IMG/VR virus record: IMGVR_UViG_2690316152_000010
Source of the DNA: a virus
Taxonomy: Duplodnaviria; Heunggongvirae; Uroviricota; Caudoviricetes
DNA: 17,538 bases
Reading direction: 5' to 3' (one strand)
Shown: in pieces, positions 594 to 17,060 of the stretch
Layout: every line of letters begins with the position of its first letter
Numbering within the stretch: position 1 is the first letter of the stretch
Notes under the pieces: model-generated
What the model saw: only the letters and a program-made list of their open reading frames with translations
Databases searched by the model: none
Told to the model about the DNA's origin: nothing
Made by a program: the position numbers and the translations under genes

Positions 594-635
594 AGCGACC
601 TCCCTTAACGTGGTGCTGCTGCTATTCTAAGTTGC

Positions 636-1745
636 TCACTCTGTTTCTGCTATCCATTCCGAGATTTTTGCCTCAAGCTCAAGCTGCGTGGTAAAGCCGC
701 TGTTATCGATGGTGTGCTCGGCTTTTGCAATAATCCAGTCCTGATTATCAATCTCGCTTTTAAATCCTGTTACCGTGCCATGCATTTCGGGGTAGAGTTC
801 TGCACGACCACATGCCAGCGTGATGGAGAATGATGCGGCTCCGCGTTGTAGCTGCTGCCACTTTGCCGCCGCTGCGCGTCTTGCTGCCTGCTCGTTCTGA
901 TAAGTCTTGCGTAACACAAACACATTGCCTTCCGCGCCTTCCATATAATCACCTTCACGGCTGCTGCTTTTCTCCTTTTTGGGTTTTGGCGGTTTGCGGT
1001 GTTTCACGCTGACTTTTTTCTTTTTCCCGTAATTAAGATCAAGCCAGTAAGCGCGTACCCCCGTATACGCTTCGCGGTCAGCAATGCGGAACTGATGGCG
1101 ATCGCCACTGCTGCGCGTGATGGCGAACGATGGCAACGGCTGGCCCTGTGCGTTCACGCCACCGCCTGGCATAATGAATAACAGATTACCGCTTTTTACC
1201 GTGGTGATTGCGCCCAGCATTTCCGCCATGCGCGTAAGGAAGGACATGTCGCTTTCTTCGGTCTGGTCGGCGTGGTCGATTTCGATATCCATCAGCATTT
1301 CGCTGATTTGCGGTTTCAGACCATACCGATGAGCGATGGCGGATACCACACGCTCAACGGTCACATCATGCCAGGACACCTCACGTTTAACGTTAAATTC
1401 ATCCCGAAAATCTGCGCTTCTGGCTGAAACAGTCAGCCTGTCCGGCGGTCCTTCGTGAGCGATTTCATCAACAATGTAAGTGCCTTTTTCTGTCAGCGGT
1501 TCTCCTTTCCAGCCAATGAGAACCGTCAGGCGCGCGCCCCGTGGCGGTAGCTGCAACTGACAATCCGCATCATCCAGCGTGATGGTGAGCTGGTCCGCGT
1601 CAAATCCCCGGTTGTCGGTCAGTGACAGGCTCATCAGGCGCTCTGCCACGCCTGACAGCGTTTTACCCTCCGCGAGAATATCAAAATCCGGCATTTTCAC
1701 GGGGTCTGTGCCCTGACTGAGCAATTGCATGGTGGTATCGGTCAT
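636..1745 (-). CDS. D: Tail protein D (P2 gpD family, 'late control D')
   Basis: 369-aa product starting MTDTTMQLLSQG. Contains the gpD-family blocks LSLTDNRGF.ADQL.I.LDD, RSADFR, SWHD, ESD..FL.R.AE, GDRHQF, REGDYMEGAEGNV, LQRGAASFS and SGFTT.LELE, plus a lysine-rich KKKKVSVKHRKPPKPKKEK linker. Start taken at the ATG at 1745, which has an AGGGAGG Shine-Dalgarno 6 nt upstream, not at the upstream in-frame start of the 413-aa ORF. Confidence 0.85.
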   Translation of the reverse strand: MTDTTMQLLSQGTDPVKMPDFDILAEGKTLSGVAERLMSLSLTDNRGFDADQLTITLDDADCQLQLPPRGARLTVLIGWKGEPLTEKGTYIVDEIAHEGPPDRLTVSARSADFRDEFNVKREVSWHDVTVERVVSAIAHRYGLKPQISEMLMDIEIDHADQTEESDMSFLTRMAEMLGAITTVKSGNLLFIMPGGGVNAQGQPLPSFAITRSSGDRHQFRIADREAYTGVRAYWLDLNYGKKKKVSVKHRKPPKPKKEKSSSREGDYMEGAEGNVFVLRKTYQNEQAARRAAAAKWQQLQRGAASFSITLACGRAELYPEMHGTVTGFKSEIDNQDWIIAKAEHTIDNSGFTTQLELEAKISEWIAETE

Positions 1746-1902
1746 CTGTTCCCTCCCTGTGCGGCATGGTCGCATGTGCGTGCGGAGGGGGTTACTGCTT
1801 TTTGTTGTCGCCGGATCGGGAGAACGGCACAGGGGTGAGATTACGCGCGTGGTGGGTGATGATTGTTGCCGAATCATTTAACGGATACAAGGGGCTAAAG
1901 CT

Positions 1903-3087
1903 ATGAGTGAAACTCGTTTTCATGGTGCCCGTGTTACGGAAAATACCGACCTGGTAACAGCGATTAACGATGTTGATTCCAGCGTTATCGGTATCGTGGC
2001 AACGGCGGATGATGCGGACGCGAAGCTGTTCCCGCTGAACAAGCCCACACTGCTGACCCGCGTCAATGACGTGCTGGGAAAATGCGGGACAACGGGGACG
2101 CTTTATCGTGCGCTTAAGGCCATCGCAGACCAGGTGAGCACAAAGGTGATCGTCGTTCGCGTGGCTGAACACAAAGAAGAAGACGGAAAGACGCAGGATC
2201 AACTGGTTATCGGTGGTTCTGAATCTGACGGCAGCTATACGGGGATGTATGCGCTGCTTGTTGCAGAGCAGGATGAAAGCATCGGATACCGTCCGCGTAT
2301 TCTGGCCGCGCCGGAGCTGGACACGGAGGCGGTGACAAAATCCCTGTGCGTGATTGCGGGTAAACTGCGCGCGTTTGTGTATGCCTCATGTCACGGCTGT
2401 AACACGATGGCTGAGGCGATTACCTACCGCCAGAAATTCAACGAACGTGAGGTGATGCTCTTATGGCCGGACTTCATCGCCTACAACCCGAAAAGTGGCA
2501 AAAACGAAACGTTCCCCGCGCCTGCCTATGCGTGCGGCCTTCGTGCGTACATTGACCATGAGCAGGGATGGCACAAATCACTGTCCAACGTTCCGGTTAA
2601 AAATGTGCTGGGGATGTCCAGGCATGTGTTCTGGTCGTTGCAGGCCGAAGACAGCGATGCCAATAGCCTCAACAACAAAGAAATCACGACCATTATTCGT
2701 CGCAACGGGTTCCGCTTCTGGGGCAACCGCACACCGGAAACGAACGCCTACATCTTTGAGGTGTATACCCGAACCGCACAGGTGCTGGCTGATTCAATTG
2801 CGGAAGCGCAGTTTGAAACCATCGACAGTCCACTGACGCCTGCGAACGTGAAAGATGTTATCAGTGCCATCAGGGCAAAACTGGATTCACTGGTTACTGC
2901 CGGGAAACTGATTGGGGCGTCGTGCTGGTATGACGTGGTGGATAACGGCACCACGAATTTACGTCAGGGGCGCGTGCGTATTCGCTACAAATATACGCCT
3001 GTTCCCCCGCTGGAAGACATGGAGCTTTACCAGTCGTTTACTGATGAATTCTTTGGTCCCGCATTTGCGGTGCTGGGAGGTGCCTGA
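1903..3087 (+). CDS. FI: Contractile tail sheath protein (P2 gpFI family)
   Basis: 394 aa, the size of P2 FI. Sits immediately upstream of the tube gene, with an AAGGGG Shine-Dalgarno before the ATG and a stop that overlaps the FII start (TGATG). Confidence 0.9.
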   Translation: MSETRFHGARVTENTDLVTAINDVDSSVIGIVATADDADAKLFPLNKPTLLTRVNDVLGKCGTTGTLYRALKAIADQVSTKVIVVRVAEHKEEDGKTQDQLVIGGSESDGSYTGMYALLVAEQDESIGYRPRILAAPELDTEAVTKSLCVIAGKLRAFVYASCHGCNTMAEAITYRQKFNEREVMLLWPDFIAYNPKSGKNETFPAPAYACGLRAYIDHEQGWHKSLSNVPVKNVLGMSRHVFWSLQAEDSDANSLNNKEITTIIRRNGFRFWGNRTPETNAYIFEVYTRTAQVLADSIAEAQFETIDSPLTPANVKDVISAIRAKLDSLVTAGKLIGASCWYDVVDNGTTNLRQGRVRIRYKYTPVPPLEDMELYQSFTDEFFGPAFAVLGGA

Positions 3088-3599
3088 TGGCTGTACCAAA
3101 ACATCTTCGCTTTTTTACGCTGTTTGTGGATGGTGAAAACGAAGTGGGTAAGGTGACGTCCGTCACGCCGCCCAAACTGACGCGCAAAACCGACAGCTAT
3201 CGTGGTGGTGGCATGATGGGGGCGGTAAGTATTGATCTCGGTCTGGACGACTCCGCGCTTGATGCGAGTTTTGTTATGGGGGGAGCTGTTCGTGCGCTGT
3301 TCCTTAAATATGGCGGCACGATTGACGGCACGCTGCTGCGTTTTGCGGGTGAATACTACACCGATGCAGAAAGCGATCTGTATGAAATCGAGATGCGCGG
3401 GCGTGTGACGGAAATTGATATGGGGGAGGCCAAACAGGGCGAAGCCACATCACACACTTACGCTGTCAAAAACACCTACTACAAGCTGAGCGTTAACGAT
3501 CGCCCGCTGTTGGAAATCGACCTGTTGAACCACATCTACCGGAAGGACGGCAAGGACATTGTGCCTGACCGCATTCGTTCCGCGCTTGGGCTTGGCTGA
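3087..3599 (+). CDS. FII: Tail tube protein (P2 gpFII family)
   Basis: 170 aa. Start overlaps the sheath stop. Position between sheath and the E/T chaperone and tape-measure genes matches the conserved sheath-tube-chaperone-tape measure order. Confidence 0.9.
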   Translation: MAVPKHLRFFTLFVDGENEVGKVTSVTPPKLTRKTDSYRGGGMMGAVSIDLGLDDSALDASFVMGGAVRALFLKYGGTIDGTLLRFAGEYYTDAESDLYEIEMRGRVTEIDMGEAKQGEATSHTYAVKNTYYKLSVNDRPLLEIDLLNHIYRKDGKDIVPDRIRSALGLG

Positions 3600-3654
3600 T
3601 AAGTAATATGCAGGCGGCGCAGTGCGTCGCCTCTGACTGAAAAGGAGACAACTG

Positions 3655-4029
3655 ATGAAAGATATCGATACTGAAACCCGGAATAACACCGTAGCGGATG
3701 ATGTGACGGCAGGTGAGGATATGGCTGTCGAACGTGGTGTAAAACTTTCCCGGCCAATTGAGCGTGGTGGCGAAAAAATCACATATGTGGAGATCACCGG
3801 GGCTATTGAGCAGGCGGGATCCCTGCGTGGTCTGTCGCTGTCTGATGTGCTGAATCTGAAAGCGGATACCATGTTCACGCTGTTGCCTCGCGTGACCTCG
3901 CCACGACTGGATGAAGTGATGATTAAAAAAATGTCGTCACGCGATTTTATTCGGTTGTGCGCTGTGGCTGTAAATTTTATGAGCGAGCCAGACTCTGGCG
4001 CGAAGAGCGTGCAGGAGACGGCAGCGTAA
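3655..4029 (+). CDS. E: Tail assembly chaperone E (P2 gpE family)
   Basis: Small acidic ORF directly upstream of the tape-measure gene, with an AAGGAG Shine-Dalgarno 8 nt before the ATG. A second frame stays open beyond its stop (see E'). Confidence 0.75.
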   Translation: MKDIDTETRNNTVADDVTAGEDMAVERGVKLSRPIERGGEKITYVEITGAIEQAGSLRGLSLSDVLNLKADTMFTLLPRVTSPRLDEVMIKKMSSRDFIRLCAVAVNFMSEPDSGAKSVQETAA

Positions 4030-4193
4030 TCACCCTGGTGTGCTTTGAGCACATCGAAGATCTGGTGGCGGATATTGCCGCCATTTTTAACTGGTCGCCC
4101 GCCGAAATCTTCATGATGACGCCCGGCGAAGTGGTTAGCTGGCGCGAGCGGGCGGCACTTCGCAGCGGGAATGCAGACAATGAAGACTCTTGA
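3655..4193 (+). CDS. E': Predicted E' (E+E') product made by a programmed -1 frameshift from E
   Basis: The -1 frame relative to E is open from 3927 to the TGA at 4191-4193 and has no credible start of its own. The heptamer A_AAT_TTT at 3972-3978 fits the X_XXY_YYZ slippery pattern in the E frame. The E' end overlaps the T start. Exact shift site is unverified. Confidence 0.45.
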
Positions 4194-6987
4194 TATCCGG
4201 GTCGCTTTCAGCGCCGTTGACAGGCTGACCCGGCCTGCCGAAAACGCCCGCCGCCTGATGGGGCAGTTTGGTGACTCCATCCAGCGAACGCAGGGGGCGA
4301 TCAAAAATCTCGAGCGTCAGGCGCGATCATTTGAGCGCGCCCGCGACGCTGTCAGTAAAGCGGATGCGGGTATCGTGAAAGCACGACGCCAGCTTAACGC
4401 CCTTAATCAGTTACAACGCACGGGTACAGTGCTCAGCGAAAAACAACAAAAGCTGATGCAGCAGTTAAGCACCCGGCTTGAACGCCTGAATGAATCGCGC
4501 ACACGGGAAATTCAGAAAATGCGGGAGCTTGGCGGAGAGCTGAAACGCCACGGCATTTCCCTGACAGGCAGCGATAACACCATCCAGCAGGCCATCAGAC
4601 GCACCGAACAGTACAACAACCAGCTTGAACGCGAACGGCAGGCGCTTGCGCGTGTAACGCGGGCGCGTGAGCGGTATTCGCGCGCGCAGGAAACCGCGGG
4701 AAAACTGAAAACAGGTGGTGCGCTGGCAATTGGTGCGGCAGCGGCGGGCGGCTATGCTGCCGGGCGTTTTTTGCAGCCTGCGATCGGGTTCGGCAAAGAG
4801 ATGTCCCGCGTTCAGGCACTGACGCGAATCGACAAAAACAGCCCGCAGTTTAAGGCGCTGCGTGAGCAGGCGTTAAAACTTGGCTCTGAAACACAGTTTA
4901 CTGCGAGTGATGCCGCCAGTGGGCAGAGCTTTCTGGCAATGGCTGGTTTTACTCCGCAGGCCATTCAGGCCGCATTGCCCGGTGTTCTTAATATGGCGCT
5001 GGCAGGTGGCGTCGAACTCGGCGAGACGGCGGATATAGGCTCCAATATCCTCACACAGTTCAACCTGACAGCCGATCAAATGGACCGGGTTGGCGATACG
5101 CTGACAGCGGCATTCACCCGGACCAATACTGATTTACGCGCGCTGGGCGAAACCATGAAGTATACCGGTCCGGTTGCCGCAAAACTTGGTATCAGTCTTG
5201 AAGAAGCGGCGGCCATGGCCGGGATGCTTGCCAATAATGGTCTTCGTGGAAGCGATGCTGGTACGGCCATGCGCGCAAGTCTGTCCCGCCTTGCATCACC
5301 GCCAAAAGCTGCGGCTGATGCGCTGAAAGAGCTGGGGGTGTCAGTTGCTGACGCCAGAGGCAAAATGCGCCCGATGGAGGATGTGCTGCTTGATCTCTAT
5401 AAGGCGACACAAAAATACGGACAGGTGGACCAGGTTTCCTTCTTCAAGGACATCGCCGGAGAAGAGGCGTTCGTTGGTTTGCAGACGCTTGTTGCTGCGG
5501 CTGGTTCAGGAGAGCTGCAAAAACTGACCAGAGAATTGCAGGGGGCAAGGGGAGAGGCCGATCGCGTCGCAAAAGTAATGGCCGATAATCTTGATGGGGA
5601 CCTGAAAAATCTCGACAGCGCATGGGAAGGTCTTCGTATTCGCATCAGTGATCTGGTTGACGGTCCGCTGCGTTCTGTCACGCAGTGGCTCACGCGGGTG
5701 CTTGAAAAAATCACCTCGCTGGCGCAGGCCCATCCGGTACTGACGCGCCAGCTACTGATAGCAGGCGGTGCGTTGCTGGCAATGACTGCAACGGTTGGCT
5801 CGTTGTCGCTGGCTATTGGTGTGCTTGCTGGCCCGCTGGCAAAACTGCGTCTTGGCTTTTCCCTCCTGACCGGTTCAATGAATGCTGTCAGACTCCTGCC
5901 AGCACTATGGGGAATGGTGACGGGTTCCGTTTCGTTACTGGGGGGCGCTATCGGGGCGTTGTTCAGTCCGGTCGGTCTTATCGTGGCTGCGCTTGCCGGA
6001 GCTGCCGTTCTCATCTGGAAATACTGGGATCCCATCAGGGCATTTTTTGCCGGGGTGTTCAGCGGGATTATGGAAAGGCTGACCCCGTTGCGCGAAACCT
6101 TTGAACGGTTTGGTCCTGTTTTTGACGCAATCGGAAGCGGGATCAGCCAGGTGTTTAACTGGTTTAAATCGCTGTTGTCACCGATGGAGTCCAGCAAGGA
6201 AACGCTGGATAAATGTACCAGTGCTGGCGAGATATTCGGTAACGTTCTTGGCGGTGCGTTACAACTTGTTCTGACACCTGCAAAAATGCTACTGGATACG
6301 CTGGCGTGGATACTTGAAAAACTTGGCGTCCTTCCGGATGAAGCGGAAAGGGCGCGCAAGAAAATCGAAGACGCACAGCGTGCGGCCATTCTTCAGGACA
6401 AGGTTGCCTTACTTCAGGGGGACCTGGCGAAAATCAATCCGCCGAAGCCTGTGGAAAATGGCAATGGCACCGGAGGTGATAAACCCAAAGACAACAAACC
6501 GCTCACAGACAGCAATACCGGGACGCTGCGCAGACTCAGCAAAATTGCTGATAACACAGGTAAGCTGGTTGATGAGACGAAAAAACGCATTGGCCCCGGC
6601 GATATTGTCTTTAAGAACCTGCCCCGCGCACTTGCTGTTCGTGGGGAGTGGCAGGAGCGGAAGATTGCGCAGGTCAGTAAGCCTGCCCCCGCAATTAATA
6701 TCACACCCGTGGTTCCGGCTCCGCTGCCTCCGGCGCTGGTCCCTGTTGTTGCGGCCAGCTCCCGCCCGGTGGCGGAGGCCATACGATCGCCAGTGGCATC
6801 AGCTCCTGCAACTTCCCGTAACCGGGAGCCTGTTGCCTCCGGATTTGGCGGTGAAATTCATGTTCATCTGCATAACATTGTTACACAGAATCCCCGCGAA
6901 CTGGCGAAACTGGTCGGTGAAATGGTTAGGGCAGAAATGGAACGGCGCGCCCGTGCCGGGCGTGGCAGTTTTTACGATAAAGATTGA
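4171..6987 (+). CDS. T: Tail tape-measure protein (P2 gpT family)
   Basis: 938 aa. N-terminal charged, coiled-coil-like region (many R/E/Q/L runs), central glycine/alanine-rich hydrophobic segments, Pro/Ala/Val-rich C-terminal region. Located after E/E'. The true start may be the second ATG at 4180, which has GGGAA 8 nt upstream. Confidence 0.9.
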   Translation: MQTMKTLDIRVAFSAVDRLTRPAENARRLMGQFGDSIQRTQGAIKNLERQARSFERARDAVSKADAGIVKARRQLNALNQLQRTGTVLSEKQQKLMQQLSTRLERLNESRTREIQKMRELGGELKRHGISLTGSDNTIQQAIRRTEQYNNQLERERQALARVTRARERYSRAQETAGKLKTGGALAIGAAAAGGYAAGRFLQPAIGFGKEMSRVQALTRIDKNSPQFKALREQALKLGSETQFTASDAASGQSFLAMAGFTPQAIQAALPGVLNMALAGGVELGETADIGSNILTQFNLTADQMDRVGDTLTAAFTRTNTDLRALGETMKYTGPVAAKLGISLEEAAAMAGMLANNGLRGSDAGTAMRASLSRLASPPKAAADALKELGVSVADARGKMRPMEDVLLDLYKATQKYGQVDQVSFFKDIAGEEAFVGLQTLVAAAGSGELQKLTRELQGARGEADRVAKVMADNLDGDLKNLDSAWEGLRIRISDLVDGPLRSVTQWLTRVLEKITSLAQAHPVLTRQLLIAGGALLAMTATVGSLSLAIGVLAGPLAKLRLGFSLLTGSMNAVRLLPALWGMVTGSVSLLGGAIGALFSPVGLIVAALAGAAVLIWKYWDPIRAFFAGVFSGIMERLTPLRETFERFGPVFDAIGSGISQVFNWFKSLLSPMESSKETLDKCTSAGEIFGNVLGGALQLVLTPAKMLLDTLAWILEKLGVLPDEAERARKKIEDAQRAAILQDKVALLQGDLAKINPPKPVENGNGTGGDKPKDNKPLTDSNTGTLRRLSKIADNTGKLVDETKKRIGPGDIVFKNLPRALAVRGEWQERKIAQVSKPAPAINITPVVPAPLPPALVPVVAASSRPVAEAIRSPVASAPATSRNREPVASGFGGEIHVHLHNIVTQNPRELAKLVGEMVRAEMERRARAGRGSFYDKD

Positions 6988-6993
6988 GGAGTC

Positions 6994-7488
6994 ATGGCCA
7001 TGATGATGATCTACGGCATGTTTGTTTTTGAGCTGCGCACGCTGCCGCATCAGCAGTTACAGCAAAACAAAAGCTGGCGGCATGTGAAAAATGAACGCGT
7101 TAACCGTTCAGCAGGCTGGCAGTATATCGGCGCAGGTGATGATCGCATTGTGCTTTCCGGCGTGCTTTATCCTGAAATTACAGGTGGCGAAGTGTCGCTT
7201 TCGTTGCTGACCACGCAGGCATATACAGGACGCCCCTGGCCTCTGATTGATGGTGTCGGGCAGATTTACGGCATGTATGTACTGACTGAAACGAATACGA
7301 CCCGTTCCGAGTTTGATCGCTATGGTAAGGCGAAAAAGATAGAATTTTCACTGACTCTTGAACGCTGTGATGAGGATTTGCGGGAGCGCCTGCAATCCTC
7401 ATCGTTCAGCGATATGCTGTCCGGCTTCAAAGATAAAGTGACATCATCTCTTAACAGCGCGGCCAGCTCCGTTAAAGGGCTGTTTTGA
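6994..7488 (+). CDS. U: Tail protein U (P2 gpU family)
   Basis: 164 aa beginning MAMMMIYGMFVFELRTLPHQ. Immediately downstream of T, with a GAGGAG Shine-Dalgarno. Size and position match gpU. Confidence 0.8.
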   Translation: MAMMMIYGMFVFELRTLPHQQLQQNKSWRHVKNERVNRSAGWQYIGAGDDRIVLSGVLYPEITGGEVSLSLLTTQAYTGRPWPLIDGVGQIYGMYVLTETNTTRSEFDRYGKAKKIEFSLTLERCDEDLRERLQSSSFSDMLSGFKDKVTSSLNSAASSVKGLF

Positions 7489-7495
7489 TTAACGC

Positions 7496-7525
7496 AAAAC
7501 CGCTAATGGTCAGATTAGCGGTTTT
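7496..7525. terminator. Bidirectional rho-independent terminator hairpin between U and the invertase
   Basis: Perfect 12-bp inverted repeat AAAACCGCTAAT / ATTAGCGGTTTT (7496-7507 and 7514-7525) with a 6-nt loop. A/T runs on both sides give a U-tract in either orientation. Sits 8 nt after the U stop and overlaps the invertase stop codon. Confidence 0.5.
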
Positions 7526-8114
7526 CATTTTCCTGAGTCTGTCTGGTTGTTTCTTCAGCCTGTATATCGCCTACAGGGTGATAACGATAAATCGTCGATA
7601 TGCCGATGTCGTAAATGATCGCCAGTTGTTTCCTGTCATGACCGTTTTTAATCAGCCTCGCTATTTGCTCGTGTTGTTCTTTTGTCAACTTCGGGCGACG
7701 TCCGCCAATGCGTCCTTGTGCGCGTGCTGCTGCCAGCCCGGCCAGTGTACGCTCTACAATTAATTCACGTTCCATTTCGGCTAAAGCCCCCATGACGTGA
7801 AAAAAGAAACGCCCCATGGGTGTTGACGTGTCAATGCTGTCCGTCAGACTACGGAAATTAACACCTTTTTCCCGCAATTCCTCAATAAGCGTGATCAGGT
7901 GTTTCATACTTCTGCCCAGTCTGTCCAGCTTCCAGACAACCAGCGTATCTCCTTCTGATAGCGTTCTGAGCAGTTTTTTCAATCCCGGTCTGGTTGATTT
8001 CGTTCCGCTGATTTTATCTTCAAAAATCAGTTCACATCCTGCGCAGTTCAGTGCATTGCGTTGTAAATCCGTGTTCTGGTCGTTTGTTGACACACGAATA
8101 TAGCCAATTTGCAT
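7515..8114 (-). CDS. Site-specific DNA invertase, serine recombinase of the Hin/Gin/Cin/Pin family
   Basis: Product starts MQIGYIRVSTNDQNTDLQRNAL and contains VVWKLDRLGRSMKHL, SLTDSIDTSTPMGRFFFHVMGALAEMERELI.ERT.AGLAAARA.GR.GGR.PKLT and a C-terminal helix-turn-helix region, all hallmark blocks of this family including the catalytic serine. AAAGAGGA Shine-Dalgarno upstream of the ATG at 8114. The track's 242-aa ORF is an upstream extension. Confidence 0.9.
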   Translation of the reverse strand: MQIGYIRVSTNDQNTDLQRNALNCAGCELIFEDKISGTKSTRPGLKKLLRTLSEGDTLVVWKLDRLGRSMKHLITLIEELREKGVNFRSLTDSIDTSTPMGRFFFHVMGALAEMERELIVERTLAGLAAARAQGRIGGRRPKLTKEQHEQIARLIKNGHDRKQLAIIYDIGISTIYRYHPVGDIQAEETTRQTQENENR

Positions 8115-8168
8115 AAAAAACATCCTCTTTGTTTCGTGAAAAATACAGAGTTGGTATAGGTAGGGATA

Positions 8169-8194
8169 AAAACGAAAACGTTGGTTTGGGGGAA
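8169..8194 (+). promoter_or_regulatory. Candidate invertase crossover site s1 at the 5' edge of cassette A
   Basis: AAAACGAAAACG-TT-GGTTTGGGGGAA. The right half and about 60 bp downstream are shared by every cassette junction. The AAACN-NN-GGTTT core resembles gix/hix/cix-type sites. The 26-bp boundaries are inferred, not demonstrated. Confidence 0.4.
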
Positions 8195-8647
8195 GGCTCT
8201 GCATTGCCTGTTGGTGTACCGGTTCCGTGGCCCACCGCCACACCGCCAGAAGGCTGGTTAAAGTGCGACGGGCGCGCCTTTACAAAAGAACAATATCCTG
8301 TTCTGGCCAGAGCCTACCCGACCCTCCGTCTTCCCGATTTACGCGGTGAATTTATTCGTGGCTGGGATGACGGACGTGGTGTGGATGCCGGGCGACAATT
8401 ATTATCTTCACAGGGGGATGCAATAAGAAATATTGAGGGATTCGCAGATGGCGGGATCGGTATGTCTTTTGATGCAATCAGAGGGGCTTTTTACGATGCA
8501 GGAACACGATCAGCGAGAATGCCGAATAACACAACTACTATAGACAAAACCGATGACCTTGGATTCGACGCCTCTCGTGTCGTGCCAACAGCTAATGAAA
8601 ACCGTCCTCGTAATATTGCCTTTAATTATATCGTAAGGGCGGCATAA
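8183..8647 (+). CDS. Promoterless tail-fibre C-terminal cassette A (alternative receptor-binding domain, tail-collar type)
   Basis: Open frame with no ATG start, beginning at the shared junction (GLGEGSALPVGVPVPWPTATPPEGWLKCDGRAFTKEQYPVLARAYPTL...LPDLRGEFIRGWDDGR) and ending ...RPRNIAFNYIVRAA*. Same N-terminal block and same end motif as the C-terminus of H. Confidence 0.75.
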   Translation, partial: GLGEGSALPVGVPVPWPTATPPEGWLKCDGRAFTKEQYPVLARAYPTLRLPDLRGEFIRGWDDGRGVDAGRQLLSSQGDAIRNIEGFADGGIGMSFDAIRGAFYDAGTRSARMPNNTTTIDKTDDLGFDASRVVPTANENRPRNIAFNYIVRAA

Positions 8648-8666
8648 AAACGTTGGTTTGGGGGAA
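8641..8666 (+). promoter_or_regulatory. Candidate invertase crossover site s2 at the 5' edge of cassette B
   Basis: GGCATAAAAACG-TT-GGTTTGGGGGAA, same core and downstream conserved block as s1 and s3. It overlaps the cassette A stop codon. Confidence 0.4.
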
Positions 8667-9131
8667 GGCTCTGCATTGCCTGTTGGTGTACCGGTTCCAT
8701 GGCCCACCGCCACACCGCCAGCAGGCTGGTTACAGTGCAACGGAGCTACGTTCACCAAAGAACAATATCCTGTTCTGGCCAGAGTCTACCCGACCCTCAG
8801 TCTTCCCGATTTACGCGGTGAGTTTATCCGTGGATGGGACGACGGGCGCAAGATTGACGAGGGGCGTAAGTTGCTTTCATGGCAGAAAGGTACACTGGTC
8901 GGCGGTCATGACGATAACGATTCTGCGCTTGATATCTCGTACATGAGTAACGGAAATAATATTGACTATGGCGGCGATAAGGTGTTTGCGGGGAATTACC
9001 GTAGCGATTATTTGTGGTACGCAATACTGGGTGGAACAAACAGTCGCGCAAAAGCCGAATTAAACGGAGCATTCTTTAACATAACCCGCCCCCGCAATAT
9101 CGCGTTTAACTATATCGTGAGGGCGGCGTGA
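8655..9131 (+). CDS. Promoterless tail-fibre C-terminal cassette B (alternative receptor-binding domain, tail-collar type)
   Basis: Starts with the shared junction block (GEGSALPVGVPVPWPTATPPAGWLQCNGATFTKEQYPVLARVYPTLSLPDLRGEFIRGWDDGRKIDEGRKLL), then a distinct distal domain, then ...RPRNIAFNYIVRAA*. No ATG start; the 'M' in the ORF track is a TTG. Confidence 0.75.
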   Translation, partial: GLGEGSALPVGVPVPWPTATPPAGWLQCNGATFTKEQYPVLARVYPTLSLPDLRGEFIRGWDDGRKIDEGRKLLSWQKGTLVGGHDDNDSALDISYMSNGNNIDYGGDKVFAGNYRSDYLWYAILGGTNSRAKAELNGAFFNITRPRNIAFNYIVRAA

Positions 9132-9137
9132 TACCGT

Positions 9138-9285
9138 TCAACTGGCAAGTGCCAGTGGCGCTTCCGGCCAGCTGATTTCAGGTGCCGTGCTGATATCCAG
9201 TGCGTTCAGCTCGTCGATATAATCCAGCACGGCGTTCAGTTTTGCCGTTTCTTCTGGTGTCAGACTGCGACCAGCACGCAGTTAA
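9138..9285 (-). pseudogene. 3' remnant of a tail-fibre assembly (tfa) gene: last ~48 codons only
   Basis: Exact reverse complement of the 3' end of the intact tfa (16430-16577). On its own strand the frame is closed by an in-frame TAA exactly where the homology ends, with no start codon. Confidence 0.7.
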
Positions 9286-9347
9286 CGCCGGGTGGGGCTG
9301 CCTGCAGATATAACGATATTATTCCGGCCGACCACTGCCTGCATGAT

Positions 9348-10826
9348 GTGCAGGATATGAGTACGCTGAATCATCCGAAGGCAGACCTGAGCAAAGGGCA
9401 GTACGGCTGTGTCGGCCAGGGCTTACATATTGCCAAAAAACTGCTCCCGTATATCCCGAATAACGCGGGGATCCTGCTGGTACCATGCTGTCGTGGTGGT
9501 TCGGCATTCACTCAGGGCGCGGAGGGAACATTCAGTACGACCACGGGGGCCAGCCAGGATTCGGCGCGCTGGGGTGTGGGTAAACCGTTATATCAGGACC
9601 TGATTGCGCGCACTAAAGCTGCATTACAGAAGAACCCGAAAAATGTGTTGCTGGCGGTGTGCTGGATGCAGGGCGAATTTGACATGAGCGCTGCCACCTA
9701 CGCACAGCAACCGGACCTGTTCACGGCCATGCTGAAGCAGTTCCGTACTGACCTTTCCGGATTTAACGCGCAGTGCCATGGCGGCAGTGCTGCAGTTGTA
9801 CCGTGGATTTGTGGCGACACGACGTATTACTGGAAAAACACATACGGCACACAGTATGACTCCGTCTACGGCGCGTACAAAAACAGGGAGAGCGACAACG
9901 TTTTCTTTGTGCCGTTCATGACCGACGGTAACGGCAACAACACGCCCACCAACTTACCGGCAGAAGACCCGGATATTGCTGATGCAGGTTATTACGGCGC
10001 GCAATCCCGTAGTAATGGTAATTGGGTATCGTCAAATCGTCCGACACATTTCAGTTCATGGGCGCGCAGGGGCATTATTTCGGATCGCCTGGCAACCGCT
10101 ATTCTGAACGCAGTTGGTCGAACCAGCGCCTTCATCAGCGGTACCGCACCGGAGATTAAACCCTCGCCCGGCGGCGACACTCCATCGGGGCCGTCTGATG
10201 GTGACACATCCGTTCGTACAGTCTCCCTGCTGCCGACAGCCGGAGAGGCTGCTGCGCAGGGCTGGACCATCACCGGCGGCAGTGTTGCGCTGGAAGATGG
10301 TGTGTTTAAGGTTACCAAGCAGAGCAATAAAACCTGGTCCCTGATGCATCCGGTGGATGACGCAGTCTCCCTGCTGACACGGGGTGGCAGACTGAGCTGT
10401 AAGTTTCGACTGTCAGGCGCACTGACCAACAACCAGTTCGGTCTGGGAATTTATCTGTATACCGATGTAGCGTTACCTGACGTCGTGGCGATGACCGGGA
10501 CTGGTAACCCGTTCCTGATGTCGTTCTTCACCCAGACCACAGACGGCAAACTGAATCTGATGCATCACAAGAAAGCCGGAAACACAAAGTTGGGCGAGTT
10601 CGGGAATTACAGTAACGACTGGCAGACGCTGGAGCTGGTGTTCACCGCCGGCAGTGCCACGGTTACTCCGAAACTGAATGGAGTGGCTGGCCCGGCATTC
10701 CAGGTCATAAAAGACAGTCTGACACTGGGGCTGAATGCGCTGACGTTAACTGATATCACTAAAAATGCCGCGTACGGCGTCGATATCGGCAGCCTGGTGC
10801 TGGAAATCAATAATCCCGCAGCATAA
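9348..10826 (+). CDS. Sialate O-acetylesterase-like protein (NanS/YjhS family, SASA/SGNH-hydrolase type); apparently 5'-truncated
   Basis: Contains NDIIP..HC.HDVQDM, GQ.LHIAKKLLPYIPNNAGILLVPCCRGGSAFT, CWMQGEFDM, CGDTTYYWK, AEDPD and FSSWARRGIISDR blocks that I recall from prophage and chromosomal 9-O-acetyl-sialate esterases. The reading frame is open upstream back to the repeat boundary at 9285 but has no ATG there. The expected N-terminal GQSN catalytic block is absent. Confidence 0.65.
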   Translation: MQDMSTLNHPKADLSKGQYGCVGQGLHIAKKLLPYIPNNAGILLVPCCRGGSAFTQGAEGTFSTTTGASQDSARWGVGKPLYQDLIARTKAALQKNPKNVLLAVCWMQGEFDMSAATYAQQPDLFTAMLKQFRTDLSGFNAQCHGGSAAVVPWICGDTTYYWKNTYGTQYDSVYGAYKNRESDNVFFVPFMTDGNGNNTPTNLPAEDPDIADAGYYGAQSRSNGNWVSSNRPTHFSSWARRGIISDRLATAILNAVGRTSAFISGTAPEIKPSPGGDTPSGPSDGDTSVRTVSLLPTAGEAAAQGWTITGGSVALEDGVFKVTKQSNKTWSLMHPVDDAVSLLTRGGRLSCKFRLSGALTNNQFGLGIYLYTDVALPDVVAMTGTGNPFLMSFFTQTTDGKLNLMHHKKAGNTKLGEFGNYSNDWQTLELVFTAGSATVTPKLNGVAGPAFQVIKDSLTLGLNALTLTDITKNAAYGVDIGSLVLEINNPAA

Positions 10827-10849
10827 GGAAGAGCAGGAGAGCAAAACAG

Positions 10850-11317
10850 ATGCTTAAGACAAACAGTCTGCGAGAGTCCATGCTTCATGGGTGTCGGTGG
10901 TGCCAGGCTAATCCCGAGAAATTCACCATTTTCGTGGAGAGCGGCAACATTGAAACGACCGGAGAAGCGCCCTCGTTTGTTTACCGCTATCAGATGGTGA
11001 TGTTTGTCATGGATTACGCCGGAGAGCTGGACGACCTCACGCTGCCGCTGCTGGCGTGGTTATCCGAAAATCAGCCACAGTTGTTGCTCAATCCGGAGCG
11101 TAATCAGGACATCAAATTTTCTGCCGTTATCAATGACGATGACAGCGCCGATCTCCTGTTTACGCTCCCCCTGCGGGAACGCGTTCGCATCACGCGCAAC
11201 AGTCAGGGCACACCGCAGGCAGAACACCTGCCGGAGCCAAAACCCCGTCTGCCCTCTTCCGAAGGCGACTGGTCGCATGTATTCCAGGATGTGACGTGGG
11301 GTGAAAGCGATGGATAA
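10850..11317 (+). CDS. R: Tail completion protein R (P2 gpR family)
   Basis: 155 aa, starting MLKTNSLRESM, with ...PLLAWLSENQP... in the middle, matching gpR in size and pattern. AGGAG Shine-Dalgarno upstream. Directly precedes the S/V/W/J/I/H block. Confidence 0.75.
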   Translation: MLKTNSLRESMLHGCRWCQANPEKFTIFVESGNIETTGEAPSFVYRYQMVMFVMDYAGELDDLTLPLLAWLSENQPQLLLNPERNQDIKFSAVINDDDSADLLFTLPLRERVRITRNSQGTPQAEHLPEPKPRLPSSEGDWSHVFQDVTWGESDG

Positions 11318-11945
11318 GGCATTCACCAGCGTGGATGAAACCTTTGAGGCTATCCGCGACAGCCTGAATCAGCAGGCCATCAATAACATCGCCAGAAAGC
11401 TGGCACAGGATTTACGTCGCGCCCAGCAGGCACGTATCCGATCACAAAAAGCGCCGGACGGGACCGAATGGACACCACGCAGACGCCGCGTAACCCGGAT
11501 ACAGGAGCGCATTCGCTTTATCTGGAATAACGAAGCACGCACGCTGAAAAACTGGCATCACGACACGGGGAAATACGGGCGAACCATTACCGGGTGGGAT
11601 GAGGATAAAAACAATATCCGCACGTTTTACCGGGATGACATCGACCGTTTTCTGGAAATACGCACCCGGCGCATCAACCAGGACAGCACAAAGCGCGTCC
11701 CCATGTTCGTAAAACTGCGCACCGCCCGCTACCTGAAAGCCCGTGCAGATGCCTCCGGTGTGACGGTGGGTTACAGCGGCGTGGCCGCACGTATTGCACG
11801 CGTTCATCAGTTCGGTGAGCGCGATCAGGTTGCGCCGGGCATTTTCACCGATTACCCGGTACGTGAGCTGTTGGGTATCAGCCAGGCAGATGAGCGCCTG
11901 ATTTATAACACGGTGCTGGGCCGGATTGCGGAGGCTGTACGGTGA
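11310..11945 (+). CDS. S: Virion morphogenesis / tail completion protein S (P2 gpS family)
   Basis: Position between R and V. Contains QKAPDGT.W.PRR and VHQFG motifs that I associate with gpS-type proteins. Overlaps the R stop. The alternative GTG start at 11301 is possible. Confidence 0.65.
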   Translation: MDKAFTSVDETFEAIRDSLNQQAINNIARKLAQDLRRAQQARIRSQKAPDGTEWTPRRRRVTRIQERIRFIWNNEARTLKNWHHDTGKYGRTITGWDEDKNNIRTFYRDDIDRFLEIRTRRINQDSTKRVPMFVKLRTARYLKARADASGVTVGYSGVAARIARVHQFGERDQVAPGIFTDYPVRELLGISQADERLIYNTVLGRIAEAVR

Positions 11946-12523
11946 GCGCAGAACTCATGCGACTGCTGAGCAACATCATCCGCACCGGGATCATCTCTGA
12001 AGTTGATGAGAAGTCCTGGCGCGTGCGCGTTCGCAGCGGCGAACTGGAAACAGGCTGGTTGCGCTGGAACACCACGCGCGCGGGAGCCTTCAATGTGTGG
12101 CTGCCGCCATCACCAGGCGAACAGGTGGTAATTGCCTGCATTGGCGGCAACCCGGAAACCGCCATGATAATTGGCAGCCTGTGGAGTGATGCCAGTCCGG
12201 CCCCCGGCAAAAGCCTGAAAGAAATCGTGGTCAGCGCGCCGGATGGCGCGGTGTTCCGCTACGACGCAGACGCTGGCGCACTGAGCGCCAGCGGCATGAA
12301 AACAGCCACCCTGCAGGCATCCGTCAGCGTGACACTGGATACGCCCGTCGTGGAATGCACAAACCTTCTGAGAACAGCGACGCTTGACGTCACAAAAGGG
12401 GGAAAGATGAGCGGCAATATCACGCACAGCGGCGGCAACTTCACCTCAAACGGCATCACAGTGCATACGCATAAACACGGTGGTGTGAAAGGCGGCAGCG
12501 ATTCGACAGGAGGCCCGCAGTGA
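11942..12523 (+). CDS. V: Baseplate spike/assembly protein V (P2 gpV family)
   Basis: N-terminal IRTGIISEVD...GWLRW..TRAG....W.PP.PGEQVV and C-terminal TLDTPVVECTN...KGGKMSGNITHSGGNFTSNGITVHTHKH are characteristic gpV blocks. GTG start overlaps the S stop, with GGAGG upstream. Confidence 0.9.
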   Translation: MSAELMRLLSNIIRTGIISEVDEKSWRVRVRSGELETGWLRWNTTRAGAFNVWLPPSPGEQVVIACIGGNPETAMIIGSLWSDASPAPGKSLKEIVVSAPDGAVFRYDADAGALSASGMKTATLQASVSVTLDTPVVECTNLLRTATLDVTKGGKMSGNITHSGGNFTSNGITVHTHKHGGVKGGSDSTGGPQ

Positions 12524-12870
12524 CAACCCGCTACACAGGAATGAATCCGGACGGGACGGGAAACCTGAATGATATGGAGCACCTGAAACAGTCAGCCAGG
12601 GACATCCTGACCACCCCGCTGGCCAGCCGGGTTATGCGACGGGAATATGGCAGCCTTGTACCTGATTTGATTGACGAACCCATGAATAACACCACGCGTC
12701 TGCAATGCATGAGTGCTGCCGTGATTGCGCTGACACGATGGGAACCCCGCATTGCCCTGGACGCCATCGACGTTGTCTGGAAAGCGGGAGGCCGCGCCGG
12801 GGTGACGCTGTCGGGCACTGTCATGCAGACCATGCAGAATGTTGAGTTAACCATCACGCTGAGGGAGTAA
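12520..12870 (+). CDS. W: Baseplate wedge protein W (P2 gpW / T4 gp25-like lysozyme fold family)
   Basis: MTTRYTGMN...DLEHL.QS..DIL.TP..SRVMRR.YGS start and 116-aa size match gpW. GTG start overlaps the V stop, with AGGAGG 7 nt upstream. Confidence 0.9.
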   Translation: MTTRYTGMNPDGTGNLNDMEHLKQSARDILTTPLASRVMRREYGSLVPDLIDEPMNNTTRLQCMSAAVIALTRWEPRIALDAIDVVWKAGGRAGVTLSGTVMQTMQNVELTITLRE

Positions 12871-12873
12871 ATC

Positions 12874-13770
12874 ATGCCTGCTGTTGACCTTTCCCAGTTA
12901 CCGGAACCCGCCATCATCGCGAAGCCTGATTTTGAGGCAATTCTGGCTGACACAAAGGCCATGATGATTGCGTCCTATCCTGCCGAACAGCGTGAAGCCG
13001 TCTCCGCCGCGCTGGAGCTGGAATCGGAACCCCTGAACGTTATCGCCCAGACAACAGCGTTTCGTGAAATGCTGTTACGCCAGCGGGTCAATGAGGGTGC
13101 ACGCGCCTGCATGTTAAGCCACAGCGCCGGGACAGACCTGGACAACCTCGCGGGCAATATGAACACAAAGCGCCTGGTTATCACTCCGGCAACGGATACC
13201 ACCGACGCGGTGATGGAAAGCGACACATCGCTGAGACTGCGGGCGCAACGGGCGTATGACGGTCTGAGTGTTGCTGGCCCGTCAGGCGCATACGAGTATT
13301 TTGCACGCAGCGCCAGCGGTCTGGTACGCGACGCGCGAGCCATCAGCCCGTCTCCGGCCAACGTGACGGTTTCCATCCTGTCCACTGAAGGCGACGGCAC
13401 AGCAACGGAGGCGTTGCTTAATACCGTTCGCGCCGTTCTGAATGCAGAGGATACCCGCCCGGTGGCCGACCGCCTGACCGTACAGAGCGCCAGAATCGTG
13501 ACATGGCGGCTGAATGCAAAACTGTACTTTTACCCCGGCCCGGAATCCGAACCTATTCTGGCCGCGGCTGAATCGTCGTTCAGGAAGTGGCTGGCTGAGC
13601 AGGGGCTTATCGGTCAGGACGTGGCGTTGTCCGCCATTGCTGCCGCACTGCATGTGCACGGTGTGCAACGCGTGGAGATAATCGAACCCACACAGAATAT
13701 GGCCATCAGCGACATACAGGCGGCGCGCTGTGAGTCATTCACCATCAGCGAAGGTGGACGCAATGAGTAA
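12874..13770 (+). CDS. J: Baseplate protein J (P2 gpJ family)
   Basis: 298 aa, in the position and of the size expected for gpJ between W and I. GAGGGAG Shine-Dalgarno upstream. Confidence 0.85.
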   Translation: MPAVDLSQLPEPAIIAKPDFEAILADTKAMMIASYPAEQREAVSAALELESEPLNVIAQTTAFREMLLRQRVNEGARACMLSHSAGTDLDNLAGNMNTKRLVITPATDTTDAVMESDTSLRLRAQRAYDGLSVAGPSGAYEYFARSASGLVRDARAISPSPANVTVSILSTEGDGTATEALLNTVRAVLNAEDTRPVADRLTVQSARIVTWRLNAKLYFYPGPESEPILAAAESSFRKWLAEQGLIGQDVALSAIAAALHVHGVQRVEIIEPTQNMAISDIQAARCESFTISEGGRNE

Positions 13771-14371
13771 TTCGTTGTTACCACCATCAGCCAGCAATTT
13801 CATGCGTTGTGCCGAAGCCGTCGGAACACGCATTACAGACATTCCGGTAGACCTCAACACGCTGTGGTCGCCGGACACCTGCCCGGTGCATCTGCTGCCT
13901 TATCTCGCCTGGGCGTTTTCCGTTGACCGCTGGGATCGCAACTGGCCGGAAGAGACAAAGCGACAGGTGATTCGTGATGCATGGCTGATACACCGACACA
14001 AAGGGACCATCAGCGCACTGCGAAGAGCCGTGGAGCCTCTCGGCTACCTGATTGAAGTAAAGGAGTGGTGGCAACTCAACGAGGAGCCGGGAACATTTCG
14101 CATTGTTGTCGGAGTACTTGATCAGGGCATCACCGATGAAATGTATCAGGAACTTGAGCGCCTTATTGCGGATGCAAAACCAGTAAGTCGCCATCTGACG
14201 GGGCTGGCGATCAGCCTGAGTGTGAACGGAAAGATTTTCGTTGGTACGGGATGCTATCACGGCGATGCCCTGACGGTTTATCCCTACACCCCGGAGTCCA
14301 TTATTGTCGAAGGGGATTATTTCCCTGCCCCGGCCATTCATTTAATTGATAATCTGAGAGTAAACGCATGA
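13763..14371 (+). CDS. I: Baseplate/tail protein I (P2 gpI family)
   Basis: MSNSLLPPSAS... with LW.PDTCP..LLPYLAWAFSVDRWD..WPEETKR.VIRDA, GTFR..VGVL..GITDEMYQELERLIADAKP.SRHL. Start taken at the ATG at 13763 (AAGGTGGA Shine-Dalgarno), overlapping the J stop, rather than the longer track ORF from 13730. Confidence 0.85.
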   Translation: MSNSLLPPSASNFMRCAEAVGTRITDIPVDLNTLWSPDTCPVHLLPYLAWAFSVDRWDRNWPEETKRQVIRDAWLIHRHKGTISALRRAVEPLGYLIEVKEWWQLNEEPGTFRIVVGVLDQGITDEMYQELERLIADAKPVSRHLTGLAISLSVNGKIFVGTGCYHGDALTVYPYTPESIIVEGDYFPAPAIHLIDNLRVNA

Positions 14372-15963
14372 CAGTGAAATACTACGCCATTCTGACTAAT
14401 CAGGGCGCGGCACGACTGGCTAACGCGACGATGCTCGGCAGTAAGCTGAATCTGACGCGAATGGCCGTTGGTGATGCAAATGGTGTGTTACCAACACCAG
14501 ACCCTGCACAAACAAAACTGATTAACCAGAAACGCATTGCACCGCTGAATCTTCTGAGTGTTGACCCTAACAATCAGAGCCAGATTATTGCGGAGCAAAT
14601 CATCCCTGAAAGCGAGGGTGGATTCTGGATCCGTGAGATTGGTCTTTATGATGATAAAGGTGTACTCATTGCGGTGGCAAACTGCCCGGAAACGTACAAA
14701 CCGCAGTTGCAGGAAGGCAGTGGACGCACCCAGACTATCCGCATGATTCTGGTTGTCACGAACACCGAAGCCATCACGCTGAAAATCGACCCGTCTGTGG
14801 TTCTGGCAACCCGCAAATATGTGGATGATAAAATCTCAAAGCACGAGCAGTCACGACGTCACCCGGACGCCTCGCTGACCGCAAAAGGCTTTGTTCAACT
14901 TAGCAGTGCCACGGACAGTCAATCAGAAACTGAGGCTGCCACGCCGAAGGCTGTGAAAATCGCGTATGATCTGGCCTGGGGAAAATACACAGCCCAGGAT
15001 GCAACAACGACCCGTAAAGGGATCGTACAACTGAGCAGTGCCACCAACAGCACCTCTGAAACGCTGGCCGCCACACCAAAAGCCGTCAAGGCGGCATACG
15101 ACCTTGCAGCCGGCAAGGCCCCCGTCAGCCACACTCACCCATGGAGTCAGATAACGGGAGTGCCTGCTGCCTCGCTGACGGCAAAAGGCACCGTACAACT
15201 GAGCAGTGCCATCAACAGCACGTCTGAAATACTGGCCGCCACACCGAAAGCGGTCAAGGATGCATACGATCTGGCAAACGGAAAACAACCGGCAGATGCC
15301 ACGCTCACTGCTCTGGCAGGACTTGCCACTGCAGCAGATCGGTTGCCTTATTTTACCGGAGCAGACCGCGCAGCGCTGGCAACCCTTACAGCTATTGGTC
15401 GCGCTATTATCGCTAAGGGCAGTATAAAAGATGTCCTCAATTACCTTGGTTTGGGGGAAGGCTCTGCATTGCCTGTTGGTGTACCGGTTCCGTGGCCCAC
15501 CGCCACACCGCCAGAAGGCTGGTTAAAGTGCGACGGGCGCGCCTTTACAAAAGAACAATATCCTGTTCTGGCCAGAGCCTACCCGACCCTCAGTCTTCCC
15601 GATTTACGCGGTGAGTTTATCCGTGGATGGGACGACGGGCGCAAAGTTGATACAGGACGTAAGTTGCTGTCCGCACAAGGGGCAACGCTGTTAAGAACAG
15701 CAATGCTGGATTATTATAACCAGGACACTACGGGAACCTCGGGGATAGTCGGCATGGGATTCAACAATGAAGATTCCATTACAGACCTTCGTGAGGGCAG
15801 CTTTAAAATGCCGGACGGGACAACATTCAGCGATCCTGTCGTGGCAATGTCAGACAATGGTATGCAGGCTACTATTCTGACCTCTATCAGAAGCGGGTAT
15901 GCGAAGGGTATCACTGTCAGACCCCGTAGCATTGCACTTAATTACATTGTGAGGGCAGTTTAA
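14368..15963 (+). CDS. H: Tail fibre protein H (P2 gpH family): constant N-terminal shaft (to ~15447) fused to the currently expressed variable C-terminal domain
   Basis: Strong gpH blocks: GGFWIREIGLYDD.G.LIAVAN, HEQSRRHPDASLTAKGFVQLSSAT, repeated SETLAATPKAVKAAYDLA units, KQP.DATLTALAGLATAADR.PYFTG. From the shared junction (LNYLGLGEGSALPVGVPVPWP...) onward it carries a third variant of the tail-collar C-terminal domain, ending ...RPRSIALNYIVRAV*. Confidence 0.9.
   Translation: MTVKYYAILTNQGAARLANATMLGSKLNLTRMAVGDANGVLPTPDPAQTKLINQKRIAPLNLLSVDPNNQSQIIAEQIIPESEGGFWIREIGLYDDKGVLIAVANCPETYKPQLQEGSGRTQTIRMILVVTNTEAITLKIDPSVVLATRKYVDDKISKHEQSRRHPDASLTAKGFVQLSSATDSQSETEAATPKAVKIAYDLAWGKYTAQDATTTRKGIVQLSSATNSTSETLAATPKAVKAAYDLAAGKAPVSHTHPWSQITGVPAASLTAKGTVQLSSAINSTSEILAATPKAVKDAYDLANGKQPADATLTALAGLATAADRLPYFTGADRAALATLTAIGRAIIAKGSIKDVLNYLGLGEGSALPVGVPVPWPTATPPEGWLKCDGRAFTKEQYPVLARAYPTLSLPDLRGEFIRGWDDGRKVDTGRKLLSAQGATLLRTAMLDYYNQDTTGTSGIVGMGFNNEDSITDLREGSFKMPDGTTFSDPVVAMSDNGMQATILTSIRSGYAKGITVRPRSIALNYIVRAV
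14869..15276 (+). repeat. Three in-frame tandem repeat units inside H
   Basis: Units at about 14869-14976, 15013-15108 and 15169-15276 encode near-identical (A)SLTAKG.VQLSSAT.S.SE.LAATPKAVK.AYDLA segments. The strong nucleotide similarity also produces the shadow ORFs on the opposite strand at 14919-15288. Confidence 0.8.
15434..15459 (+). promoter_or_regulatory. Candidate invertase crossover site s3 at the constant/variable junction of H
   Basis: TCCTCAATTACC-TT-GGTTTGGGGGAA. The left half is H-constant sequence; the right half and the following ~60 bp are identical to the cassette junctions at s1 and s2. Confidence 0.45.
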
Positions 15964-16577
15964 TGAGTAACACTGCAGTTCTGGATGAAAACGGTATCGC
16001 CACTGTAGCGGGCGATATCACTGTATATCACTATGACGAGGAAACCCGGGAATACACCTCATCCTCTGTGGAGTATCTCGCCCTTGGGGTGGGTACTCCG
16101 GCACATTCGTGCGCCGATGCACCGCCGGAGGCAATTTCGGGTTACGTGGTTTGCCGGACTGCCACGCTGAACGGGTGGGAGCATGTGCCTGATCACCGCG
16201 GCGAGACGGTATACAGCACGGAGAACGGTAACCCTGTTCTGATTACCCAACCGGGTGATTACCCGGCGGACACCACCACAAAACAGCCAGCCACGCCATG
16301 GGATACCTGGAACGGTGAGGCGTGGGTAACCGATACTGAACGGCAGCGAGCCGCAGAACTGGAGGTTGCCAGACAGCAACGCCAGCAACGGGTGAAACAG
16401 GCGATGGCGTCCGTCGATCTTATCAACCTCAAACTGCGTGCTGGTCGCAGTCTGACACCAGAAGAAACGGCAAAACTGAACGCCGTGCTGGATTATATCG
16501 ACGAGCTGAACGCACTGGATATCAGCACGGCACCTGAAATCAGCTGGCCGGAAGCGCCACTGGCACTTGCCAGTTGA
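15963..16577 (+). CDS. Tail fibre assembly chaperone (Tfa / P2 gpG / Mu U-like)
   Basis: 204 aa, directly after H with a TAATG stop/start overlap. C-terminal ...LTPEE.AKLNAVLDYIDELNALDISTAPEISWPE.P is typical of Tfa-family chaperones. Confidence 0.8.
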   Translation: MSNTAVLDENGIATVAGDITVYHYDEETREYTSSSVEYLALGVGTPAHSCADAPPEAISGYVVCRTATLNGWEHVPDHRGETVYSTENGNPVLITQPGDYPADTTTKQPATPWDTWNGEAWVTDTERQRAAELEVARQQRQQRVKQAMASVDLINLKLRAGRSLTPEETAKLNAVLDYIDELNALDISTAPEISWPEAPLALAS

Positions 16578-16583
16578 ACGGTA

Positions 16584-17060
16584 TCACGCCGCCCTCACGA
16601 TATAGTTAAACGCGATATTGCGGGGGCGGGTTATGTTAAAGAATGCTCCGTTTAATTCGGCTTTTGCGCGACTGTTTGTTCCACCCAGTATTGCGTACCA
16701 CAAATAATCGCTACGGTAATTCCCCGCAAACACCTTATCGCCGCCATAGTCAATATTATTTCCGTTACTCATGTACGAGATATCAAGCGCAGAATCGTTA
16801 TCGTCATGACCGCCGACCAGTGTACCTTTCTGCCATGAAAGCAACTTACGCCCCTCGTCAATCTTGCGCCCGTCGTCCCATCCACGGATAAACTCACCGC
16901 GTAAATCGGGAAGACTGAGGGTCGGGTAGACTCTGGCCAGAACAGGATATTGTTCTTTGGTGAACGTAGCTCCGTTGCACTGTAACCAGCCTGCTGGCGG
17001 TGTGGCGGTGGGCCATGGAACCGGTACACCAACAGGCAATGCAGAGCCTTCCCCCAAACC
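16584..17060 (-). CDS. Inverted copy of tail-fibre cassette B (promoterless variable C-terminal domain)
   Basis: Encoded 157-aa sequence is identical to 8658-9131. Converges on the tfa stop, 6 nt away. Confidence 0.75.
   Translation of the reverse strand, partial: GLGEGSALPVGVPVPWPTATPPAGWLQCNGATFTKEQYPVLARVYPTLSLPDLRGEFIRGWDDGRKIDEGRKLLSWQKGTLVGGHDDNDSALDISYMSNGNNIDYGGDKVFAGNYRSDYLWYAILGGTNSRAKAELNGAFFNITRPRNIAFNYIVRAA

Follow-up and report, generated by a model that had tools for sequence, protein, structure and literature searches.

The perfect inverted repeat that appears to enclose the baseplate and tail-fibre genes of this prophage is very probably a scaffolding artefact of a draft short-read assembly and not a feature of the genome. 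The DNA analysed here (the window, 17,538 nt in full) belongs to a P88-like (Xuanwuvirus, Peduoviridae) prophage of E. coli. The original prediction, made from the letters of the window, described a perfect inverted repeat of at least 1.1 kb around the whole module. As far as the window goes, this was borne out: a repeat search returned arms of 1,107 nt (8177-9283 and 16432-17538) that are 100% complementary and spaced 7,148 nt apart, and the base-by-base comparison proposed at that time found them identical, with no divergence. The match of the two arms is far beyond what chance would give. When the 2 nt of the source contig past the window are included, the arms reach 1,109 identical nt (8175-9283 and 16432-17540). 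Two of the predicted limits, 8177 and 17538, were right, and the other two, 9285 and 16431, overshoot by 1-2 nt. Each arm contains two tail-fibre C-terminus cassettes with a Collar domain and the final 144 nt of tfa. Between the arms lie the esterase open reading frame, gpR, S, V, W, J, I, H and tfa. The gene names given at the outset (invertase, cassettes A and B, tfa 3′ end, esterase and R-S-V-W-J-I-H-tfa) are correct. Coordinates are collected in Table 1.

Table 1. Features of the window, with positions counted from its first nucleotide.
Feature	Position	Strand	Remarks
Scaffold piece a	1..9283		Collinear, on the + strand, with DA33135 (98.3%), AVS0542 and P88
Serine DNA invertase, 199 aa, Gin/Cin/Pin/Hin type, single copy	7515..8114	-	Pfam and Gin structure matches
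Crossover site s1 (AAAACGAAAACG-TT-GGTTTGGGGGAA)	8169..8194	+	Between invertase and cassette A
Left arm	8177..9283	+	Cassette A, s2, cassette B and tfa 3′ end as in piece a
Silent fibre C-terminus cassette A	8183..8647	+	Collar domain (Pfam)
Crossover site s2	8641..8666	+	Between cassettes A and B; AVS0542 inversion breakpoint (8650)
Silent fibre C-terminus cassette B	8658..9131	+	Collar domain (Pfam)
Scaffold gap, one base	9284		N in CYBG01000002.1, A in the window; very probably marks the misjoin
Scaffold piece b, reversed	9285..17538		Reverse complement is one block in DA33135 (99.3%)
SASA/DUF6645 carbohydrate esterase, 3′ 1,542 nt	9285..10826	+	Pfam; first 339 nt missing
Tail fibre H, 531 aa	14368..15963	+	Pfam Phage_tail_fib, Phage_fiber_2 x3, Collar; repeat family D1
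Crossover site s3	15434..15459	+	Inside H, at the constant/variable boundary; AVS0542 inversion breakpoint (15443)
Tail fibre assembly protein tfa, 204 aa, intact	15963..16577	+	Pfam Caudo_TAP 3.5e-28
Right arm	16432..17538	-	Left-arm DNA very probably read again, in piece b; contig end 2 nt past the window

The source contig was found by exact protein look-ups, in which H and the truncated esterase product led to a single source. The window is the terminal 17.5 kb of the draft contig CYBG01000002.1 (353,633 nt; GCA_001285145.1, E. coli). The truncated esterase product is present on this contig only, and its look-up turned up no independent re-assembly of the isolate. A literature search found no papers mentioning GCA_001285145.1. 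Alignment of the window with the contig revealed one difference in 17,538 nt: the record gives N at position 9284, the window A. This is the single base between the left arm and the esterase fragment. Because it is an N, the two arms, and with them the two halves of the window, are not linked by sequenced DNA. A 68-aa gene call spans the junction, and the A in place of the N gives it an internal stop in the window translation. No N occurs anywhere in the window; ambiguous bases were seemingly replaced beforehand, which hides scaffold gaps.

The outer ends of the repeat also bear on its origin. The left arm starts in crossover site s1, and the right arm is cut inside the equivalent of s1 by the end of the contig, not merely by that of the window. 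A second invertase gene had been suggested beyond the right arm. Only 2 nt (TT) of contig are left past 17538, and since the arm is ended by the contig end, no second invertase can be inferred there.

The N separates two pieces. Piece a reads, in order, hok/gef, ogr and gpD (-); sheath, tube, E/E′, tape measure and U (+); then the invertase (-), s1, cassette A, s2, cassette B and the last 144 nt of tfa (-). Piece b reads the 5′-truncated esterase, R, S, V, W, J, I, H and tfa, followed by cassettes B and A on the opposite strand, with s1 at the contig end. We compared this arrangement with phage P88 and with two E. coli prophages, those of AVS0542 and of DA33135, the latter strain having a closed chromosome. 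In all three comparators the module of sheath, tube, E/E′, tape measure and U is convergent with the baseplate/fibre module, the invertase and the fibre cassettes sit between these two modules, and the lysis and head genes lie beyond the baseplate module, on its strand. The window has its baseplate module on the opposite strand relative to the comparators. The path of the window is canonical to 9283, jumps 7 kb ahead and then runs backwards to the start of the repeat, which amounts to a fold-back. The canonical order is regained when positions 1-8176 are followed by the reverse complement of 9285-17538.

We merged piece a and the reverse complement of piece b across their overlap, which gave an unfolded sequence of 16,430 nt. 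Its alignment with the closed DA33135 chromosome is a single block (16,404-16,415 nt, 98.7% identity), whereas the window as given splits into a plus-strand block (1-9283) and a minus-strand block (9311-17538). Both of these blocks overlap on 1,107 nt of the same single-copy DA33135 interval (locus positions 11001-12107). Like the prophage in the window, that of DA33135 adjoins serS; it has one copy of each element, and its cassettes (172 and 151 aa), tfa (204 aa) and H (531 aa) have the same sizes. No long inverted repeat was found in the DA33135 prophage locus, where the sole inverted repeats are the cassette heads (196-228 nt, 89-93% identity). Two physical copies of the repeat on one molecule were thus not found: the arms share a single DA33135 interval and an N stands between them. 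Judged by the comparison with relatives and by the N, this isolate probably has no second physical copy.

These results change how the repeat had been interpreted. The original prediction took the repeat to be real and attributed the identity of its arms to recent duplication or ongoing gene conversion, and the closest closed genome has each arm sequence once. It further proposed that the 7.1-kb baseplate/fibre module flips as a unit, and the junction that gives rise to the second arm turned out to be a scaffold gap. An assembly chimera of two orientations of an invertible segment had been named as the alternative. An artefact it most likely is, but of another kind: the two pieces overlap, and one of them (8.25 kb) is mis-oriented. 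This mis-oriented piece b takes in baseplate genes that are not invertible.

A misjoin of the following kind would explain the layout. At the end of the record, a single N connects piece a (to 9283) with piece b (from 9285). The two share a terminal stretch of 1,109 nt, very probably single-copy, which they read on opposite strands, and they thus overlap tail to tail. The correct merge would then be piece a plus the reverse complement of piece b. This would yield the P88-like order of sheath, tube, tape measure and U (+), invertase (-) and fibre cassettes, and then tfa-H-I-J-W-V-S-R-esterase followed by lysis and head genes (-). Piece b, if joined by its wrong end, would produce a fold-back with a seemingly perfect inverted repeat. 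Five points are directly observed, namely the N, the overlap, the collinearity of the unfolded sequence, the presence of one copy only in closed genomes and the lack of this junction in other records; how a scaffolder or gap filler arrived at this layout is inferred.

The ends of piece b are of the type at which assemblies break. Its right end, equivalent to 8175, is the first base of a 52-nt exact stretch common to s1 and s2, and the start of this repeat is a classic branch point for a graph assembler. Its left end (9285) falls inside a multi-copy esterase gene family. Over its first 100 nt (9285-9384) the esterase fragment matches a lambdoid-prophage DUF6645 gene of O157:H7 at 100% and the P88-like copy at 82%; beyond about 9685, identity is 100% to the P88-like copy and 77-88% to the lambdoid genes. 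The mosaic 5′ part stems either from gene conversion among paralogous prophage genes or from the end of a contig having wandered into a paralogous copy.

The end of piece a is less readily accounted for. We found no repeat boundary at 9283 that would explain it, and tfa is mostly single-copy at this position in complete genomes. This leaves the exact route unexplained and speaks against an artefact, as does the fact that the scaffolder linked the pieces in this order on some evidence, presumably read pairs. Possibly, piece a first ended at s1 and a gap filler added 1,109 nt of true sequence; such an extension into a mis-oriented gap would run until one N remained. GapFiller lengthens both edges of a gap one base at a time and joins them only on overlap (PMC3446322), and edge extension of this type could place true sequence in a mis-oriented gap. 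The GapFiller paper does not state a one-N convention (PMC3446322). Overall, the locus resembles misjoins from scaffolding and gap filling (e.g. of the SSPACE/GapFiller type) in its residual N, in the redundant sequence at the joined edges, in the piece ends at repeats (the s1/s2 52-mer and the paralogous esterase) and in that re-orienting one piece restores the layout. It is unlike them in that piece a ends at 9283 without a repeat explanation.

The junction itself proved to be unique to this record among the collections searched. A 301-nt query across 9284 detected it in 0 of 5,426 complete E. coli genomes, 1,608 of which matched one side or the other. A 34-nt exact pattern likewise gave no occurrence in viral, genome and metagenome contig collections. 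Two genes are cut short at this point, the esterase and tfa, of which the 3′ end alone is kept. In the esterase fragment the reading frame stays open as far as the junction, and the alignment of the fragment begins at nt 340 of the 1,881-nt DA33135 gene; the preceding 339 nt are missing because piece b begins at 9285. In both DA33135 and AVS0542 the esterase (DUF6645) lies between lysC and gpR at its full length of 626 aa (1,881 nt; 17713-19593 of locus L006). Across the equivalent of 16431/16432, tfa is unbroken in 619 complete genomes. The esterase is an accessory gene in these P88-like prophages, and phage P88 has none at that position.

Both truncations count against a real, isolate-specific inverted duplication, in which two physical 1.1-kb cassette blocks would flank an inverted baseplate/fibre module, the N would be a tiny gap at a true junction and the block could flip by RecA-dependent or invertase-mediated recombination. 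Such a duplication would wreck the esterase gene and leave a tfa fragment behind, and the lysis and head genes, which in every relative lie next to the baseplate module, would be cut off from it. The deposited scaffold does have this very order, and scaffolders normally require linking read pairs. In addition, for a real inverted repeat a graph assembler would output an Eulerian walk L-rep-M-rep′ that ends where the outer repeat ends, and site s1, where the contig breaks off, is such a boundary; yet the s1/s2 repeat by itself would make a break there just as much to be expected. Moreover, the junction is unsequenced (N) and occurs in no other genome, and in a closed genome a near-identical prophage occupies the same site with single-copy elements in canonical order. 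We therefore consider a real duplication very improbable. It is hard to credit that the GCA_001285145.1 isolate truly has the fold-back, that is, a 9.4-kb block of baseplate and fibre genes with perfect 1.1-kb repeats that end at crossover sites and could be flipped by the Gin-like invertase or RecA. If true, the fold-back would be a much enlarged version of the P1 C-segment architecture, derived from a recent rearrangement.

The coexistence of a 9283-9285 link with an intact tfa across 16431/16432 could also be accounted for by a mixed culture. A subpopulation would carry a non-homologous inversion of the baseplate genes, with break points in tfa and the esterase, and rearranged and canonical edges would have been threaded into one path. 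When the junction was aligned with intact tfa and the intact esterase gene, the short sequence CAGTT (5 nt) was indeed common to both break points. However, these shared 5 nt cannot give the observed join without an extra base, which is the N, and neither break point has a sequence like an invertase site. A mixed culture would require two coincident events and is superfluous once the N is known, and we give it hardly any weight. Two specific mechanisms were tried and rejected. A microhomology-mediated template switch at CAGTT is moot, as the join needs the one extra base that is the N, and invertase action at quasi-sites was dismissed because both break points lack any likeness to the AAACC-NN-GGTTT-type sites of s1-s3.

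Unfolded, the locus shows a tail-fibre switch of the conventional Gin type, with a single invertase, three crossover sites and a choice of three C-termini for H. The invertase matches the Pfam families Resolvase (PF00239, 2.4e-51, 174 bits at a cut-off of 23.3) and HTH_7 (PF02796, 1.4e-12), and over residues 1-185 it matches the Gin crystal-structure sequences 4m6f and 3uj3 (E about 1e-91). Its N-terminus, MQIGYIRVSTNDQ, contains the conserved catalytic serine motif, and by homology this serine would have the catalytic role. All of s1, s2 and s3 carry TT-GGTTTGGGGGAA with an identical central dinucleotide, and this sequence codes for the start of the variable fibre part (GLGEG...). The half-site consensus, and by inference the 26-bp extent of the sites, follow what is established for crossover sites of the Gin family.

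H has a constant part that extends to about 15442, followed by the expressed variable C-terminus with its Collar domain (15443-15963). The head of cassette A is 90% identical to the variable region of H. Since s3 is inverted relative to s1 and s2 in the unfolded layout, three C-termini are available to H, the one it now carries and those of A and B. Several elements of the switch are read twice in the window. Site s2 recurs at 17049-17074(-), and the two extra crossover sites named in the original prediction, s4 and s5, are physically identical to s2 and s1. The tfa 3′ end at 9140-9283(-) is the same tfa gene, read in piece a. Within H, positions 14884-15284 hold three copies of a unit of roughly 101 nt, 66-85% identical, which are the three Phage_fiber_2 repeats. 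The length of H varies, from 531 aa here to 574 aa in AVS0542 and 764 aa in P88.

The comparison with AVS0542 captured the switch in another state. There, the s2-s3 segment (1,623 nt; 20650-22272 of locus L001) is inverted, with 99.0% identity and collinear flanks. In the window this segment corresponds to 8650-9283 plus 15443-16431 in the unfolded order, and DA33135 has it in the same orientation as the window. We take the AVS0542 inversion, read from aligned genomes, as direct comparative evidence that the segment flips in nature, which is a mildly useful by-product of the analysis. What the switch inverts is 1.6 kb (s2 x s3) or 2.1 kb (s1 x s3) of DNA and not a block of 7-9 kb. With the segment turned as in AVS0542, tfa lies next to a silent cassette (20658-21784 of the same locus) and points away from H. 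A single tfa gene accompanies the three alternative fibre C-termini.

The underlying switch biology is already known. As in the Mu G segment with Gin, the P1 C segment with Cin, the e14 P segment with Pin and the Min system of p15B, a Gin-like serine invertase adjoins the segment, the crossover sites share their central dinucleotide, alternative tail-fibre C-termini and tfa lie within the invertible DNA, and natural inversion is seen between isolates. With p15B Min, the locus also shares the presence of more than two sites and hence of several states. It differs from these systems in residing in a P2-like (Peduoviridae, Xuanwuvirus P88-like) prophage and in having three Collar-domain cassettes and only one tfa. 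In the P1 C segment, inverted repeats of about 0.6 kb flank a unique region, with cix sites at their outer ends. The window as drawn resembles this arrangement in that a long perfect inverted repeat flanks a unique region and the left arm has a crossover site at its outer end. Unlike in P1, the second arm here is, by all indications, not a second physical copy, and the 'unique region' would hold eight essential structural genes and a broken esterase.

The main value of these results is as a caution: an N silently turned into a base made a scaffold join look like a seamless 1.1-kb repeat. In scans of draft assemblies, Ns should be kept visible, and perfect inverted repeats that reach a contig end should be suspected. 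The locus itself is an ordinary Gin-type host-range switch of the tail fibre in a P88-like prophage. The left part of the window, positions 1-1877 (1-2389 of locus L005), is the prophage end adjoining serS and carries the hok/gef toxin gene, ogr and gpD on the minus strand; gpD has 413 aa in the open-reading-frame list and 369 aa as a called gene. In the related P88-like prophages H7 and H13 (Escherichia phages 520873 and 503458), IS100 insertions are present in or near the tape-measure region.
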